Shown here: positions 1,478 to 30,900 of the stretch, piece by piece
How the letters are laid out: every line of letters starts with the position of its first letter
Position numbering within the stretch: the stretch's first letter is position 1
DNA from: Chiloscyllium plagiosum
Lineage: Eukaryota
Direction of reading: 5' to 3'
Assembly: GCF_004010195.1 (NCBI RefSeq)
Contig: NC_057733.1
Location: 48,181,877 to 48,245,876 of the forward strand
Length of the DNA: 64,000 bases
Made by a program: the position numbers and the translations under genes
The notes under the pieces: generated by a model
The model's input: only the letters and a program-made list of their open reading frames with translations
Database searches by the model: none
Told to the model about the DNA's origin: nothing

Positions 1478-3760
1478 AAACTGAAGCCTCCTGTGCAGCA
1501 CCTTGTGAAACGCCTTCTTGAAGTTCAGGTAGATAACATCCATTGGCTCTCCTTGGTCTAACCTATTCATTATTTCCTCAAAGAATTCTCGCAGCTTTGT
1601 GAGGCATGACTTCCCTTTGATGAAACCATATTGACTTTGCCCTATTTTACCATACACTTCCAAGTATTCCGAAATCTCATCCTTCACAATCGTCTCAAAA
1701 ATCATTCCACGACAGAGGTTAGGCTAATCGGCCTGTAACTTTCTTTCTCCCTTTTTAAACAGGGGTGTCATGTTCACCATTTAACAATCCTCTGGGACCC
1801 TCCCTGACTCTAGCAATTCCTGAAAGATCACCACTATCTCTCTATCACCACTAACCTCTCCAGCTATCTCCTTTAAAACTCTGGGGTGTAGTCCATCTGG
1901 TCGAGGTGATGTATCCACTTTCAGGCCAGTTTTTCTAACACCTTCACCTTGGTGAATGCCACTATACTCAGTTCTGTCCCAATTCTCTTGAAATTTTTGG
2001 AATATTACTCATGTCTTTCAATGTGAAGACTGACACATACTAACTATTCAGTTCCTCAGCCATTTCCTTATTCCCCACTAGTTTCTCTCCAGCAGATTGA
2101 TGTCCACTTTTGCCTCTCCTTTGCTCTTTAGATATCTAAAGAAACTCTCAGTCTTCCTTTATTACTGGCTAGCTTACCCTCGCATTTAATCTTCTCTCTA
2201 TTTCTTTTTTGTTGCCCTCTGTTGGTCTTTATAAGCTTCCCAATCCTCTGGTTTCCCAGTGCCTTTCACCACATTATATGCTTTCTTTTTTGGTTTTACG
2301 CTATCCCCGACTTCCTTAGCCATAGTTGCCTCATTGTCCCTGTACCATGCTTCTTTTACCTCGGGACGCATTTTTGCTATGTTTCCTTAACTACTCCCAG
2401 AAACTGGCGGCAATTGCTGTTCCACTGTCTTTCCTGCTTGGCTCCTCCCCCAGTCAATTCTGCCCAGCTTCTCCCTAATGCCTCTGTAATTGCCTTTATT
2501 CACATGTAGTTACACAGTCAATAGCCTCCACCATTTCCACTGCTATATCGATGACTATCGGCGTTACCTCATGCTCCCAAGAAGAGGTTGAACAGTTCAC
2601 TAACTTTACCAACACCTTCCACTCTGACCTCAAGTTCACATGGACCATCTCTGACACCTCCCTCCCTTTCCTGGACATCTCTGTCTCCATCTCCGACGAC
2701 CGACTCCCACAGCTACCTTGACAACACTTCTTCCCCCACACACCCAGATGTCCTGTTTCAGGGACCACAAATTTCCCCTCTCACTTGATCAACAATGCCC
2801 GCCAGTGCATCACCTTCGCTCTCAAACCCCACCTCTCCAACCACAACAAGGTTAGAACCCTGGTCCTCACCTTCCACCCCAATAATCTCTGAATTCAGCT
2901 CATTATCCTCTACTATTTCCACCACCCACAAAGATATAATTCCATCCTCACCCCATCTGCGTTCAGCAGAGACCATTCGCTCTGCGACTCCCTTGTTAGG
3001 TCCATACCCCCCAATCAACCCCATCCACACCTGGCACATTCCCGTGCCACTGCACGAGGTGCAAAACCTGTGCCTTCACCTCTCTTCTCACCTCCGCCCA
3101 AGGCCCCAAAGGATCTTTTCACATCCAACAGATTTTCCTGCACATCCACCCACCTCATCTACTGCATCTGTTGCTCTTGATGTGGTCTCCTCTACATTGG
3201 GGAGAGAACACCAACTCGCGGAGTGTTTCAGAGAACAATTCTGGGAAGCACACACCAAACAATCCCACCACCCTGTGGCCGACCACTTCAACTCCACGTC
3301 CCACTCCAACAAGGACATGCAAGTCCTGGCCGTCTCTACCGCCAAATCAAAACCACAAGCCAACTGGAAGAAGAATGCCTTATCTTCCACCTTGGGACTC
3401 TTCAACCAACACAGACTTCACAAGTATCCAAATATTCCCCCTATCACCAACACCCCCCAAATCCCAGATCCAATCCTCCAACTCGGCACCACCTTATTCT
3501 CATCTGTTCATCTTCCTTCCCATTGACCTATCACAATTAACCTCTACCTGCATCCATCTATCACGTTCCCACCTAACTTCCCTCTCCCTCCTACCTCCGT
3601 CCTGATGAAAGGCTTATGCCCAAATACTCCAAGGAGCAGGATAGTGCCTGACCTGCTGTGCTTCTACAGCGCCACACTTTGATTCTTTATTCAGTTGTAA
3701 TACTGCTATCTCTGATACCATCTTCTCCCTCCCAAATTGCATCAATGTCAAAATAACCCA
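1478..3760 (-). mobile_element. Degenerate CR1 LINE fragment, interrupted by a Penelope-like insertion at about 2509-3684
   Basis: The minus-strand ORF 1373-1705 reads SQYGFIKGKSCLTKL...DVIYLNFKKAFHKV. Boundaries are approximate. Confidence 0.75.
2509..3684 (+). mobile_element. Penelope-like element (Neptune-like) remnant: RT, GIY-YIG and degenerate hammerhead terminus
   Basis: Frame fragments read FHSDLKFTWTISDTSLPFLDISV and LIYCICCS*CGLLYIGE. CCTGATGAAAGGCTTATGCCC lies at 3601. CTTTATTCA is repeated at 2494-2502 and 3685-3693 (probable TSD). Confidence 0.8.
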
Positions 3761-8119: not shown

Positions 8120-9600
8120 AGGTCCCTTGCATCACTGATCGCAGTTTGCAACCAATTCAATTCACTCCAAATATTTAAAAAAATAGTAGGAGGCATTAGA
8201 TACTGAAAGGCAACAGATCCTGACAACATTCCAGCAATATTACTTAAGACTTGGCTCCAGAAATTGTTGCAACCCTAGCCAAGCTGCTCCAGTAGTGTTA
8301 CAATATGGCAACTGATCAACAATTTGGAAAATTGCCCAAGTATCTTCCATGCATAAAAAGCAGGACAAATCCAACCTGGCCAATTAGCTCTCGGTGAGCC
8401 TGCTCACGATCATCAGTAAACTGATGGTAAGCGCCAAAGTGGTATCAAACAGCAATTCTCAGCAGTAACCTATACCGTGATTCTCAGTTGTGTTCTGCCA
8501 GGGCTAAATTCTAGGTTAAGTGAGTGTGATTGCCCTTGACATCAATGCTACATTTGACTAAGTGTGGCATTAAGGAGCCCTAGCAAAACTGCAGTTACTG
8601 GATATCGGAAAGAAAACTCTCCACTTGGAGTCATTCTTGGCACATAGGCAGATGGCTGTGATCTTTGGATGTCAGTCATGACAACTCCAGGGCATCTCTG
8701 TAGGAATTCCTAAGAAATATGTCCTGGGACCAATCATCTTCAGCTGCAACAATGATCATCTCTCCATCGTAAGGTCAAAAATAGAGCTGTTTGCTGATCG
8801 TTTCACAATATTCAACACCATTTGTCACTCCTAAGATATTAAAGTAGTCTATCTCCAAATGCAACAAGACCCAGATACTACCAAGCTTGGTCTGAAAAGC
8901 AGTACTAACAGTCATACTACACAAAGACCATTTAACAAACACTCCTTGACATTACCATCATTGAATATCCTAACAAAATCATGGGGATTGCCAGTGACCA
9001 GAAACTCAACTGGATTCACCATAAAAATACAGTGGCCAGGAATATTACAGCAAGTAACACCTTGACTGTCTAAAGCCTGTCTATCATCTACAAGGCACAA
9101 GTCAGGAATGTGATGGAATACTTCCCACTTGCCTGAATGAATGCAGCTTCAAAAACACAAGCAGCTTACACAATCTAGGACAAAGCAGCCCACTTGACTG
9201 GCCCCTTATCTACAAACAACCCCCCCCTCCCCCCCAATCGACACTCTATTGCAGCATCTATGTACCATCTATAAGATGCTCGACAGAAATTCACCAATGC
9301 TCCTTAGACTGCACCTTCTAAACCCATGACTACTACCAAGTAGAAGGACAAAGATAGCAGATACATGGGAACACCTCCAACTGCAAGTTCCCTTTCAAAC
9401 TACTCATGACCTTGATTTGCAAAGATATTGTTCCTCCGATGTCACTGGGTCAAAATCCTGACATTGTCTACCTGTGGGTCCACCTACAGCACACGGATTG
9501 CAGTGATTCAAGAAGGCAGCTCACAACCACCTGAAGGGCAACTAGAGGCAGGTAATAAATGCCAGCCTGATCACCAACCACAATCGAGTGAATAATGAAA
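8120..9600 (+). mobile_element. Old degenerate CR1-like LINE fragment
   Basis: Decayed RT motifs (ALDINATFD*VWH, LFAD). The 3' UTR GCAGTGATTCAAGAAGGCAGCTCAC...ATAAATGCCAGCC is shared with other copies in the window. Confidence 0.7.
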
Positions 9601-15395: not shown

Positions 15396-18300
15396 CAGAC
15401 TGGAGGCCTGTGACCAGTGGAGTACCACAAGGATCGGTGTGGGGTTCACTGCTTTTTGTCATTTATACAAATTATTTACAATGTGACCATAGGAGGAATA
15501 GTTAGTAAGTTTGCAGATGACACCAAAATTGGAGGCGTAATGGACAGTAAAGAAAGCTACCTCGGAGTACAACAGGATCTTGATCAGATGTGCCAATGGG
15601 CTGAGGAGTGGCGGGGGAGTTTACTTTAGATAAATGTGAGGTACTGCATTTTGGAAATCAGAGCAGGACTTAGACACTTCATGGTAAGATCCTGGGGACT
15701 GTTGCTGAACAAAGAGACCTTGGAGTGCAGGTCCATAGTTCCTTGAAAGCAGAGTCATAGCTAGATAGGATCGTGAAGGCAATGTTAGAGCATAGAGTAG
15801 AGGAGTTGGCAGGTCACGTTGCAGCTGTACAGTACATTGACCAAGCCACTTTTGGAATACTGCATGCAATTCTGGTCTACCTCCTATAGGAAGGATGTTG
15901 TGAAACTTGAGGGTTTGAACTTTGAGGGGCTGAATAGAGTGGGGCTGTTTTCTCTGGATCTTTGGAGGCTGTGGGGTGACCTTACAGAGTTTAGGTTGTA
16001 AGTTTGCTTGCTGAGTGGTGGATTTGTTGTCAGATGTTTCATCACCACACTAAGTAACATCATCAGTGAGCCTCTGGTGAAGCACTGGTGTTATGTCCCA
16101 CTTTCTATTTGTGTCTTGGTTTCTTAAGGTGGGTGATATCATTTCCAGTTCTCTTTCCTCAGGAGGACGGTAGATGGGGTCCAAATCATATTGGTGGAGT
16201 TCCAGTTAGAATGCCAGGCCTCTAGGAATTCCGGTCAGTGTCTCCCGACAGTTTAGCTTGTCCTACAATGGACATGTTGTCCCAGTCAAAGTGGTGTCCC
16301 TCTTTGTCTGGGTGTATGGATACGAGTGATAGTTGGTCATGTCTTTTGGTGGCTAGTTGGCGTTCATGTATCCTAGTGGCTAATTTTCTGTTTGTCCGAT
16401 GTAGTGTTTGTTACAGTCCTTGCATGATATTTTGTAAATGACGTTTGTTTTGTTGGCATGATTGCTTCTGTAGTCAAGTATTTGGTTATTTGTATAGGGT
16501 CCTTTTGGTTCATCAGCCACTATTTAAGTGTGTTGCTAGGTTTGTGGGCTACAATAAAGCCAATCGACAGAACACCCAAGGGATCACCAATATCAGGGTT
16601 CCTATCAGAGGCAATAATAAGAGACTCAAACAAACAGCCCTCCCAAATATCCGACCCAAACTCTTGGTCCGCTACCTGGATGATACCTTCGATTACAAAA
16701 CGGAATAAATTAGAGGAAACCTACAACACCATCAACAATATCCTTACTGGCATTAAATTCACAAAAGCGGAGGACAGCGATAACAGACTCCCATTCCTAG
16801 ATGGGACAGTAGAACGAACAGTTAAAGGAGAACTTCAAACCAGCATCTACAGAAAAACACACAAAACCAAATACTTGACTACAGAAGCAATCATGCCAAC
16901 ACCCACAAACGGAGCTGCATCAGGACATTATTTCAATGAGCCACAACACACTGCAGCACCCAGGAACTACGAACAGACGAACAAAAATACCTGTACAGCA
17001 TATTCAGGAAGAACGGACACCCAAAAAAACAGAGCACTGATTTCACAACAACAAACCCAAACAAGCAAACACAACGCACCCAGAAACTCTAGCCACATTA
17101 CCTTACAAAAGCATCTCTGAAATGACTTCCAGACCACTCTGACCCCTTGGCATCATGGTAGCCCACCAACATACTTAAATAGTGGCTAATTAACCTAAAG
17201 GACCCTATACAAACAACCAGCAAAACAAACATCATTTACAAAATACCATGTATAGACTGTAACAAACACTACAATCAGACAAACAGGCAGAAAACTAGCC
17301 ACAAGGATATATGAACACTAACTAGCAACCAAAAGACATGACCCACTATCATTCGTACCCTTACATACAAACGAGGAAGAACACCACTTTAACTGGGACA
17401 ACACATCCATCGTGGGACAACCTAAATAGCAACACAGCTGAGAATTCTTAAAGGCCTGACATTCTAACCAGAACACCAATAAACACATCGATTTGGACCC
17501 TATCATGCTCCGAGGAAAAGAACCGGAAATAATATCACTCACCTTAAGAAACCAAGACACAAATAGAAAGTGGAACATAACACCAGCGCTTCACTGAAGA
17601 CTCACTGATGATGTTACCTAGTGTGGTGACAAAGCGTCTGAAAACAAACCTTCCAGCTCAGCAAGCAAGCTTACAACCTGAACCAAAAGACATGACTAAC
17701 TATCACTAGTACCCATACACACAGATGAAGAGGGACACCAGTCCGACTGGGACAATACATCCATCCTGGGAACAGGCTAAACAAAGACATGCACAGGAAG
17801 TTGTAGAGGCCTGGCATTCAAACCAGATCTCCATCAATAAACATATCAACCTGGAGACCATTTACCAACCTCTCAGAAAAAAACAGAAGTGATGTCACCC
17901 ACCACAACAGACCCAAGACACATAAACAACAAAATGGGACAGAACACCAGAGCTTCATTGGAGGCTCACTGATACCTGACATTTCATCACCATACCAGAG
18001 AAATCTACCAGCTCAGTGAGCAAACTTAGAACCTGAGCTACAAATCTTCTCTAAAATTGCTTCTAGAAGTTTATAAGATCCTGAGGGGCATGGATAGGGT
18101 AAATAGACAAGCTTTTTTCCCTGGGATGGGAAGTAGGGGGCGTAGGTTTAGCATGAGAGGGGAAAAATTTTAAAAGGGACATAAGTGGGAACAGTTTCAC
18201 GCAATGGGTGGTGCATGTATGGAATGAGCAGTCAGAGGAAGTGGTGGAGGCTGGTACAATTACAACATTTAAAAGGCACCTGGATGTGTTTAAGAGGCAT

Positions 18301-18410: not shown

Positions 18411-20272
18411 CACTTGAATCCATGTGGTGGAGGTATGCTCGAAATTCTTTTAGGATAAGAGCTCTGGGATTTTGACTCAGCAAGTGAAGAAAAGGCTATA
18501 CAATCCAGGTCAGTATGGTGTGGGATTTGGAGAGGAACGTGCAGGCAGTAATGTTCCCATGCATTGGCTGGCTTCGTCCTTCTATGTTCTAGAGGTCATA
18601 GAGTTGGAAGAGTTGGATGAATTGAAAGAACGTTGGCGAAATGCTGCAGTGCATCCTCTAGTTTGTACACATGCTGCTGCTTTCCTTCGATGGTGGAGGA
18701 AATGATTGTTTTAAATTGGTGAATGTGATGCCAAACAAGCACACTGTTTTGCTGTCAAATCTCTGGAGTGTTGTTAGAGTTGCATCCATCTAGGCAAGTG
18801 AAGAGTGTTGCATCACATTTCTCACATGGTCAGAGATGCAGCTCAAGGATCGGGCTCATCAGCCACGCAAGGACCTATAAAACCCATGGCCAGTGGCAGA
18901 ATCACTCATTAGCGAGTGATTCCACATGTCTTGTAGATGAACAGGTTTTGGAGTATCAGGAAGAGAGCGATCAGCCGCAGAATTTTCAGCTTTGTATCTT
19001 CTCTTGCAGCCACACTATTTATACAGCTGGTCCAGTTCAGTTTCTGGTCAAACAGGAGTTCTCAGGATGTCAGCTGTGGGGGATTCAGCAATATGAAACT
19101 TTCTTGAATGCCAAGGGGAGACAGTTAAGATTCTGTTTTTAGAGATGGCAGTTTCCTGGCATTTGTAAGGTGCAAATGTTACTTGTCACTTTTTGGCCCA
19201 AGCTGTCCATGCAGGGACAAAGTTAAGACACAGATACCTCCTTCAGTGTAATCCAGTCTACCATAGGGAGCCAATTACAAATCAATCATTCTTTCCACGT
19301 ATTACTTTGAATCACCTTTTACTTCAAATACTATAAAAGGTGACAAACTAGATAACCTTCCTTGAGGATGCTTCAGGTACTTCTGATCATTGTAACTAGT
19401 CATTAGCATTCAGGCCACCATGTCTGTGCTGGAATTATAAACTAGCTGCCAATTCTAATGAAACTTTCCAGTTTTTTTTTTTGGCCTAGCAGGTTACAGC
19501 ATTTCAGGTGCAGATCCAGGTACCACTTAAATGAGTTGAACTGGGCAGCAAATTTTAGCTGTCCAGTAGCCATTGGGTGGAAAGCTAGAATTTCTACATT
19601 ATAGTTCTTCATAGTATAAATTAGGAAAATTTGAAAAATGTTAAAAGATAGACATTACAATCCTTCTATAGTATGCAGTCACTCCACACAGGGAGCTTTC
19701 CACAAAAGGTTATTGCTCTCCCTTGCAGTGGGCCAACCCCAACTGGATTCACAGGCTGCTGACAGCCATCTGTGACAGACTGACCACAACAGACCCAGTC
19801 CACCAATCGCCCCACTCCAGGCCTCCAGCCCACTTACTGCCAGCTGCCTAACACTGGGCCCCCAGTCCCTCTTTTCCACTCTGGTCCCACCCCACTATCA
19901 ACATTCTGGGGGTTAGCATTGACCAGAAGCTAAACTGGACTTACCCGTAAACAATGGCTGTAACAGCAGGTCACAGGCTAGGATTACTGTGGTAAATAAC
20001 TCACCTCCTGACTGCTCAAAGCCCATCACCTACAAGGCACAAGTCAGGAGTGTGATTGAATACTCCCACTTGCCTGGATGAGTTTGTCTCCGACAACTCT
20101 CAAGCAGCTCGAGACCATCCAGGACAAATCAGCCCGCTTGATTGGCACTACATCCACAAGCATTCACTCCCTCCACCACCGAATCTCAGTAGCAGCAGTG
20201 TGTACCATCTACAAGATGCACTGCAGAAATTCACGAAATATCTTTAGATAGTTCCTTCCAAACCCATGTCCT

Positions 20273-20628
20273 GCAAGGTTTGTAGCTCAGGTTGAGGTTT
20301 AGGGTGTAGGTTTGCTCGCTGAGCTGTAGGTTTGATATCCAGACGTTTCATTACTTAGCTATCAAACCTACAGCTCAGTGAGCAAACCTACACCCTAAAC
20401 CTCAACCTGAGCTACAAACCTTCACAAACCTTGCAAAAACCTATTGGTGCAACATGCTACAACTTGCCTGAAGATGGGAAAGGAATGCCATCCGAGAGGG
20501 TTCCACCCACGAACAACTGTACTTAACAGCTTCGCTTCACTTGGAGGTCGCCACTGATGATGTTACCTAGCCTGGTAATGAAACGCCTGGATATCAAACC
20601 TACAACTCAGGGAGCAAAGCTATACCCT
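20273..20628 (+). mobile_element. Non-autonomous Penelope-derived, hammerhead-containing element (retrozyme-like), 13-bp TSD
   Basis: TSD AAACCCATGTCCT at 20260-20272 and 20629-20641. TATCAAACCTACA(G/A)CTCAG is repeated at 20360 and 20592 (232-nt period). Hammerhead core at 20554-20587; ~63-bp inverted repeat at 20276-20338 and 20360-20422. Confidence 0.8.
20551..20590 (+). ncRNA. Minimal type I hammerhead ribozyme motif (Poseidon-type); cleavage triplet mutated to GCC in this copy
   Basis: CCA-CTGATGA-T-GTTACC(TAGCCT)GGTAAT-GAAA-CGCC-TGG, giving stem I CCA/TGG and a 6-bp stem II. The inverted partial copy at about 20334-20350 retains GAAACGTCTGG. Confidence 0.8.
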
Positions 20629-21029
20629 AAACCCATGTCCTCTCGATAGGAGTGGTAAAGCAGAGCAGATACATGAGAACACCATCACCTGCAAGTTCCC
20701 TCCAAGCACTTCACCATCCTGACTTGGAAATATATCACCATCATTCCTTACTGGGTTAACATCCAGAAATTCCCTCACTAATGGCATTGTGGGTCAATCC
20801 ACAGCAGGTGGACTGCAGTGGTTCAAGAAGGCAGCTCACCACCACCTTCTCAAGGGCAATTAGGGATAGGCAATAAATGCTGACCAGCTAGCAATGAATA
20901 AAAAAAAGGAGTTATGGGAAGAGAGGAAAGGTAAGCCATTTCTGACTCATTTTCATGCAAATTCCAGCACAAGTAGACTCCAGAGTTAAGCTCAACTCCT
21001 TTCGTAGCTGTCAGGATTTCGGGCCTAGC

Positions 21030-29744: not shown

Positions 29745-30900
29745 CGTGAGACATGGGTGTTGCTGGCTGGTCAGCATTTATTGCCTGTCCCTCGCTGCCA
29801 TTGAGAAGGTGGTGGTGAGCTGCCTCCTTGAAACACTGCAATCCATATACTGGAGGTAGACACACTGTGCCATTAGGGAGGGAATTCCAAGATTTCGACC
29901 CAGTGACATGAAAGAATGATGATACATTTCTAAGTCAGGATGGTGAATGGCTTGGAGGATATCATGCAGATGATGGTGTTTCCATGTATCTGATGCCTTT
30001 GTCCTTCTAAATGTAAGTGGTCATGGGTCTAGAAGGTGTTGTCTCAGAATCTTTGGTGAGTTTTTGCTGTGTCTCGTGTAGATATTACACACTGCTGATA
30101 CTGAGTGTCAGTAGTGGAGGGAGTGGATGCTTGTAGGTGTGATGTGGGCTGCTTTGTCTTGAATGGTGTCAAGCTTCTTGAATGTTGTCAGAGCTGCATC
30201 CATCCAGTCAAGTGGGGACTATTCCATCAAACTAGTTGACCACCATTATTCACAATTGGATGGGCTGCAGATCTAATCTGTAGATTAAGTCACTTACTCC
30301 AGTCTATCACATACTGCACCTGTTGATTAGCATGCATGTAGTCCTGTGTTGTAGCATTACCAAATTGACATCAATTTTTTTTAGGTTTGTCTTGTGCTTC
30401 TCCTTACACTCTTCATTGGACCAGGATTGATTTCTTCCTGTTAGTGGTAATAGTTATGAAATTACAGATTGTACTGACTACAATTCTGCTCCTGCTGATA
30501 GCCAACAGTGTTTTATGTATGTTCAGCACAAGGGTTCCTTGCTCATGTTTCACCTGATGTCATAGAGACATGAGTCAATATTGAGGACTCCTGACAGCAA
30601 CTGCCTCCCAATTATACACCAATGTGCAATCACCTCTGTCTTGATCATGGGACAAGACATACGCAGCAATGGTGATGACAGTATCTGGGATGTTCTTTGT
30701 AAGGTATGATTCCTTGAGGACTACTGTGTCAGGCTGGTCTATGAGACTAGCCTATGGGACAGCTCTCCAAAATTTGGCACAAGTCACCCCATTTGGGGGA
30801 CTTTGCTGGGTTAGCAGAGCTAGGTTTGCCATTGTTATTTCTGGCACCTACATCATGCTGGGCTCTCATCCAGTTTAATGTAGACTTCATAGCATATCTG
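29745..30900 (-). mobile_element. Old CR1-like LINE fragments
   Basis: Reverse complement of the 3' UTR family seen at 9500 and 20800 (CAGCATTTATTGCC...GGTGGTGAGCTGCC). Boundaries are approximate. Confidence 0.65.

Follow-up and report, generated by a model that had tools for sequence, protein, structure and literature searches.

A rearranged Penelope-like element insertion with a degenerate hammerhead in Chiloscyllium plagiosum, probably formed by template jumping during reverse transcription

Penelope-like elements (PLEs) of the EN+ type insert as a characteristic unit, which the available passages of PMC3846280 and PMC8557442 describe as an inverted, 5'-truncated pLTR with a 30-40-bp tail on one end and a short TSD. 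The head-to-head repeats were ascribed to self-priming on an antisense template (PMC3846280, available passages). For PAc, a Poseidon element of Anolis carolinensis, the accessible part of PMC11167929 describes two internal start sites of reverse transcription which bound the tail in vitro, and a template requirement that includes the first 172 nt of the ORF.

An origin of retrozymes from PLE pLTRs has already been argued, and retrozymes are recorded in one cartilaginous fish, in the accessible text of bioRxiv 10.64898/2026.07.22.740005; the supplementary retrozyme list for that fish could include a unit of the family described below. Tandem and inverted PLE inserts, hammerhead cutting in vivo and the origin of retrozymes from PLEs are treated as open questions in the available sections of PMC8557442, PMC11167929 and bioRxiv 10.64898/2026.07.22.740005.

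The locus analyzed here lies in a 64,000-nt stretch of Chiloscyllium plagiosum DNA, called the window below. An earlier note on the window had read a short insertion in it as a non-LTR retrozyme, a non-coding 232-nt hammerhead unit derived from a PLE and mobilised as a small, possibly circular RNA. The analysis points to a single dead PLE insertion with head-to-head arms and two standard ends, made by two-sided priming of one cut and one template jump; we put the probability of this reading at roughly 0.7. The locus is an inert one-off stub of a known element type.

The derivation from a Penelope-like element was confirmed: all three pieces of the insert map to one abundant PLE family. The 28-nt hammerhead core motif of this family has 2,934 exact matches in the 3.56-Gb genome, and long copies measure about 2.5 kb from pLTR to pLTR. 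A domain scan of five stop-free stretches of the parent element gave a match in three of them. A reverse transcriptase (RT) domain was recognised (Pfam RVT_1, E=7e-12, L047) and, C-terminal to it, a weak GIY-YIG match lying under the Pfam cut-off (E=0.005, L049), which together give the domain order of EN+ PLEs. A CxxC motif is visible between the equivalents of GIY and YIG in parent copies, and three degenerate copies inspected by eye had no Zn-finger-like linker between RT and EN; a C-terminal GIY-YIG with no such linker is also found in PAc (PMC11167929, available part). By the linker criterion in the accessible portion of PMC8557442, the parent would fit the Penelope/Poseidon group, as judged from its sequence. 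The parent pLTR has a TATA box and a TCACT initiator-like motif and overlaps the first codons, as in the EN+ units described in the available parts of PMC3846280 and PMC8557442, and a minimal type I hammerhead (core motif, long stem II and ACGU palindrome) lies over the ORF start.

Sequence inspection located an exact 13-bp direct repeat, at 20260-20272 on the left and 20629-20641 on the right, with 356 bp in between. After removal in silico of the insert and one copy of the repeat, the empty site aligned collinearly with two paralogues of the host repeat found elsewhere in the window, and the 13-bp repeat is therefore considered a true TSD; the last base of its left copy is common to the end of the inverted arm. 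The older host repeat that holds the insertion (19941-20900), which we take to be LINE 3'-end-like, has paralogues that are 72-75% identical at 9083-9562 and 29760-30233. The 356-bp insert with its exact TSD, the inverted terminal piece (20273-20361) and the absence of RT or endonuclease coding, all of which had been claimed before, were verified.

Element positions are numbered from the ATG at hammerhead position A9 (+1, window position 20560), the predicted cut following +28; A9 and U16.1 below refer to the standard hammerhead numbering scheme. When mapped on family copies, the left arm (20273-20361, minus strand) was found to be an inverted pLTR piece extending from +9 to +108, with a 10-nt slip between two ACAAACCTT repeats. 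It terminates at the long ('tail') end of the family, contains GAAACGUC but no CUGAUGA, and differs from the commonest family letter at 2 of 89 positions, both at the arm junction. A 63-nt arm within this inverted piece is 98% complementary to 20360-20422. The two arms meet head to head in a 2-nt microhomology (TA, 20360-20361), seen as an overlap of the mapped segments.

The middle segment (20360-20524, plus strand) is the front of the PLE ORF, from +33 to +197, with 7 differences in 165 positions from the commonest letter; it begins 4 nt past the predicted hammerhead cut and contains a premature stop at 20469-20471. It is followed by a blunt, private junction, +197|-35 (20524/20525, plus strand), with neither microhomology nor added letters. 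The right segment (20525-20633, plus strand; 6/109 differences) is a pLTR piece without the TATA box, from -35 to +74; it terminates at the short end of the family and its final 5 nt (AAACC) are in common with the TSD. Over the whole insert, 15 of 363 positions differ from the commonest family letter. The head-to-head arms, one-end tail, TSD and 5' truncation of this insert are those of the EN+ PLE unit in the available descriptions (PMC3846280; PMC8557442).

The 232-nt period reported by the earlier note, as slightly more than one copy of a unit, is real, but only 42 nt occur twice in the insert (90% identical), which amounts to 1.18 units. The '232-nt unit' is likely to be just the span bridged by one template jump.

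The ends of the insert were compared with those of other family members. Sampling started from the 100 core matches listed first for contig C1, 98 of which were taken as 90 loci; 86 loci remained after 4 duplicates were dropped. Two-armed head-to-head inserts were found at 37 of the 86 loci, 36 of them with a TSD of 7-17 nt. In 37/37 a short end (+60 to +74) was paired with a long end (+90 to +115), where long-end values near +95 mostly reflect the 10-nt slip and L136 counts as such a pair only if the outermost end is used, as was done here. The window insert has the identical pair of ends, one short and one long (+74 and +108).

The earlier note had taken the insert for a permuted copy of a circle or concatemer. 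Because the outer ends are the two standard 3' ends of the family, they are not the permutation points of a circle, and random permutation of a circle was ruled out by the 37 two-armed loci. A circular template is possible and is not needed, and copies of more than unit length are, alone, no evidence of circular RNA. The strictness of the short/long pairing leads us to infer two-sided priming, which would fit the pairing better than the self-priming set out in the available passages of PMC3846280.

A minimal type I hammerhead had been claimed for the insert, and a core of this type is indeed present at 20551-20590 (plus strand; predicted cut after 20587), with CUGAUGA at 20554-20560 and GAAAC at 20580-20584; it is the one core in the whole insert. 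This copy, however, is degenerate according to its sequence, its folds and the triplet counts: U16.1 is replaced by C at 20586, stem II is changed at 20573, and the cut triplet is GCC (20585-20587) in place of GUC. Among the 116 family cores sampled, GAAAC was followed by GTC in 64 and by GCC in 1. The GAAACGUC element is confined to the inverted arm, the arm that has no CUGAUGA. Cofolding of dimers gave an intermolecular ACGU helix III for an intact copy and none for the window copy, whose ribozyme is predicted to be inactive. Single-strand folds of the hammerhead region were no better than those of shuffled sequences (z scores of 0.69 and -0.32 for the window and -1.37 for L033), as expected for so small a motif. 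An Rfam scan of the locus returned no hammerhead family; sub-threshold matches to miRNA-type and lncRNA families fell mostly, or were best, on the inverted repeat.

The ATG at 20454, which had been proposed as the ORF start, was dropped. The corresponding triplet is ACG in 29 of 43 family copies and ATG in 13, so that ATG 20454 is likely a product of CpG decay, and the reading frame starts 42 codons upstream of it, at an ATG in stem II of the hammerhead (the equivalent of 20560). An ORF that opens at the hammerhead ATG is also reported for the anole Poseidon, with the start in stem II and the cut 26-28 nt downstream as here (PMC11167929, available part).

The search for further copies of the junction which the earlier note had proposed was carried out, with the junction placed at 20524/20525. 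No other +197|-35 junction was found in the genome, a gapped assembly, with a 35-nt query (2 mismatches), with two exact anchors separated by a gap, or with a 21-nt query (2 mismatches); the second match of the 21-nt search (L211) was unrelated DNA. Two cores within 450 nt of each other gave 29 matches genome-wide, a set that includes other subfamilies and local duplications and one locus, L088, not mappable to the reference copies; no long array of one unit was present among those that were mapped. Gaps in the assembly could hide collapsed arrays. The junction thus occurs at one locus, outside any tandem array, an outcome which the earlier note itself had named as speaking against a mobilised unit.

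Like the metazoan non-LTR retrozymes in the available portions of PMC7229834 and bioRxiv 10.64898/2026.07.22.740005, the insert is non-coding, falls on the 150-450-nt scale, bears a type I hammerhead and has its ancestry in a PLE pLTR. Unlike them, it has no tandem array or second core, is single-copy, and has a minimal ribozyme with a broken triplet. Retrozymes are recognised by a run of two or more units, every one with a complete hammerhead (bioRxiv 10.64898/2026.07.22.740005, as far as the accessible text goes), whereas the insert has 1.18 units and one core; by a multi-copy family with a common unit, whereas this junction is found once in the gapped assembly; and by an intact ribozyme core, whereas this one carries GCC and makes no intermolecular helix III in the cofold. 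It is therefore hardly credible that the insert is one of a family of mobilised non-LTR retrozymes built on a 232-nt unit, even though its size, its hammerhead and its PLE descent are what such a family would show. The insert is probably not a mobile circular-RNA element in its own right.

Some support for short mobile units comes from another junction of the family, +246|-76, at L054 (G000:C6:113159516-113162665, about 1560). This junction is single-copy in the present assembly and was recovered at a contig depth of 104 (X1) and 684 (X18) in two public runs, which are RNA or DNA runs. It represents either an expressed orthologous locus or a unit of about 325 nt amplified in relatives, and short units of the PLE family may accordingly have been amplified or expressed elsewhere. 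The junction +166|-26 of L197 (G000:C4:128164602-128167693, about 1575) was seen in 2 raw RNA reads (X21) and at a contig depth of 156 (X18). Reads on the front end of the family (L033) showed no clustering of start or end points, a weak test with 0 reads in X22 and 234 in X21 (from about 2% of the run). Among the indexed runs, which are contigs or poly(A) single-cell data, none is recorded as an RNA source that contains the window locus, a result with no bearing on its expression.

The position at which the jump lands was examined with one search design at four anchors, a 13-mer anchor followed by a gap of up to 190 and then the core motif. The anchor at +149 gave 11 matches (10 events), that at +260 gave 1, and those at +646 and +1226 gave 0. 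In the C1 sample the same four anchors are covered at 0, 1, 2 and 7 of the 86 loci, so that deletion at random would be expected to give the reverse order, with more matches at the deeper, better covered anchors. The probability that at least 9 of 10 events fall in one of four equal cells, with the window left out, is approximately 3e-5. A jump was present in 26 of 28 loci checked, corresponding to 24 events when L004, L005 and L199 are counted as one; 22 of the 24 landed at +155 to +289 and the other two at +512 and +1199, a distribution biased by the use of anchors near the ORF front to gather the list, so that the four-anchor comparison is the test. The landing zone of the shark family starts near the 172-nt minimal RNA of PAc (PMC11167929, available part).

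A full-length element that lost about 2.26 kb after insertion, through DNA repair, would also show a unique and blunt junction, and deleted Penelope copies are on record in the available part of PMC3846280. The shared flanks of L004 and L005, which yet differ by small deletions, show that junctions can shift after insertion. Such losses, however, should land anywhere in the ORF and favour the deeper anchors, contrary to the 10, 1, 0 and 0 events observed, and the described cases are mediated by microhomology, of which the window junction has none. A later deletion is for this locus quite improbable. The insert very probably arose while a small RNA was being reverse-transcribed, an origin that the earlier note had already proposed and that the four-anchor bias now supports.

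L004, L005 and L199 are one insertion found three times, with common flanks and small deletions, on an unplaced contig and at two C8 sites 20 kb apart; they represent an allele or a segmental duplication.

The window locus alone does not decide between a linear and a pre-joined template: it jumps off at -35, a position not among the recurrent 5' ends of the family (-26 and +29), and no letters were added at its junction. The reading of the mechanism draws on sister loci. L205 (G000:C28:27595219-27598256, at 1476-1789) is a TSD-flanked, direct-tandem insert of three pieces, whose starts (+28, +30 and +29) coincide with the predicted hammerhead cut; the jumps landed at +169 and at +166, the latter with AAA added. 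Of the loci examined, it gives the clearest genomic indication of what may be hammerhead cleavage in vivo and jumping on linear RNA. Pieces starting at +28 to +33 are also present in L015, L017, L021, L022, L104 and the window.

Of the 5 events that jumped from -26, 4 have an additional G with no template (L004/L005/L199, L046, L197 and L201; not L008), and these starts sit about 30 nt below the TATA box. Copying of a cap leaves an extra G, and about 30 nt is the usual spacing between TATA box and transcription start. From the sequences, the extra G is likely a copied cap that would mark the start of transcription. In L003, L004, L006, L010 and L197 the piece that follows the jump ends 0-4 nt from the jump-off point, and a closed circle would not explain such stops. 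Taken together, the best-resolved sister loci suggest reverse transcriptase jumps between the ends of linear RNAs.

Other sister loci fit a template that was already joined, be it a circular molecule or a source copy with a deletion, for one insertion contains its junction twice: L048, L058 and L063 show it in each arm, and L028 shows it as a tandem (unit of about 975 nt). The window insert could likewise be a one-off copy of a circle with -35 to +197 ligated, or of the transcript of a deleted source, read 1.2 times and never amplified. Its blunt junction is what ligation would leave, and the landing-zone result is equally compatible with this origin. On the other side, the genome searches for the junction found no source copy; +197|-35 lies off the cut (+28/+29), so that ribozyme cutting followed by re-ligation would not make it; and L205 shows two landings in one insertion, while five other loci show stops at the jump-off point. 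A pre-joined template is therefore unlikely at this locus.

The junctions of L010 and L020, which lie on different contigs, are both at about +218|-76 and differ by one A; this could be a recurrent jump guided by microhomology or a two-copy mini-family.

Under the favoured reading, of a dead insertion with one jump, both 3' ends of a staggered cut would prime reverse transcription, at the internal start sites +74 and +108. The cDNA begun at +74 would run to the 5' end of the RNA, or to a break, at -35, and would then jump to about +197, in the zone where short or trimmed RNAs of the family likely end. Copying would continue as far as +33, stopping 4 nt before it reached the hammerhead cut, possibly on a cleaved RNA, and the cDNA arms would be joined through the 2-nt microhomology. 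Drift of about 4% and loss of the GUC triplet would have followed. Two-sided priming of this kind recalls the twin-priming model which is reportedly applied to LINE-1.

A wider reading, to which we give somewhat less than even odds, regards the window insert as one of a few dozen fossil 'retrozyme seeds' left by a PLE enzyme that would bind short RNAs and jump from their 5' end to their 3' end, so building copies longer than one unit with no circle involved. Such RNAs would have their 5' end at the capped start (-26) or at the cut (+29), and their 3' end at about +155 to +290. If true, this would be a birth mechanism for non-LTR retrozymes, and L205 would be genomic evidence that cleavage by a minimal PLE hammerhead takes place in vivo and that the resulting RNA is retrotransposed.

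Two internal reverse transcription starts bounding the tail and an AC-rich priming region are shared with PAc. In the available part of PMC11167929, PAc yielded no RNA reads that terminate at the cut and did not require cleavage in vitro, whereas several genomic pieces of the shark family begin at +28 to +33; PAc also primes in vitro without homology, whereas the two ends of the window insert have 5 nt and 1 nt in common with the TSD. The narrow landing zone at the ORF front, the cap-like G and the starts at the cut site go beyond the descriptions of EN+ PLEs in the accessible portions of PMC3846280 and PMC8557442. The landing zone is not described in the literature on PLE template jumping and twin priming as covered by titles and the beginnings of abstracts, nor were the cap-like G and the cut-site starts found in that literature, in which subscription journals were sparsely covered. 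The value of the locus lies in its junction class, which offers a testable lead on the PLE mechanism and on the birth of retrozymes; the end pairing, the landing zone, the cap-like G and the cut-site starts are all predictions that can be tested in the in vitro system of PAc.

In arms with the long end, some 10-20 nt are often skipped around +40 to +56 or +70 (L006, L081, L087, L106, L116, L135 and L167). The skips are close to the priming site of the other arm and may be due to the presence of two cDNAs on one RNA.

Elsewhere in the window, older pLTR stubs (69-80% identical) of a related PLE subfamily are located at 15989-16068, 17575-17684 and 17970-18060, and minimal hammerhead-like motifs of other families occur at 3602, 10133, 33249, 49913, 56264 and 63028.
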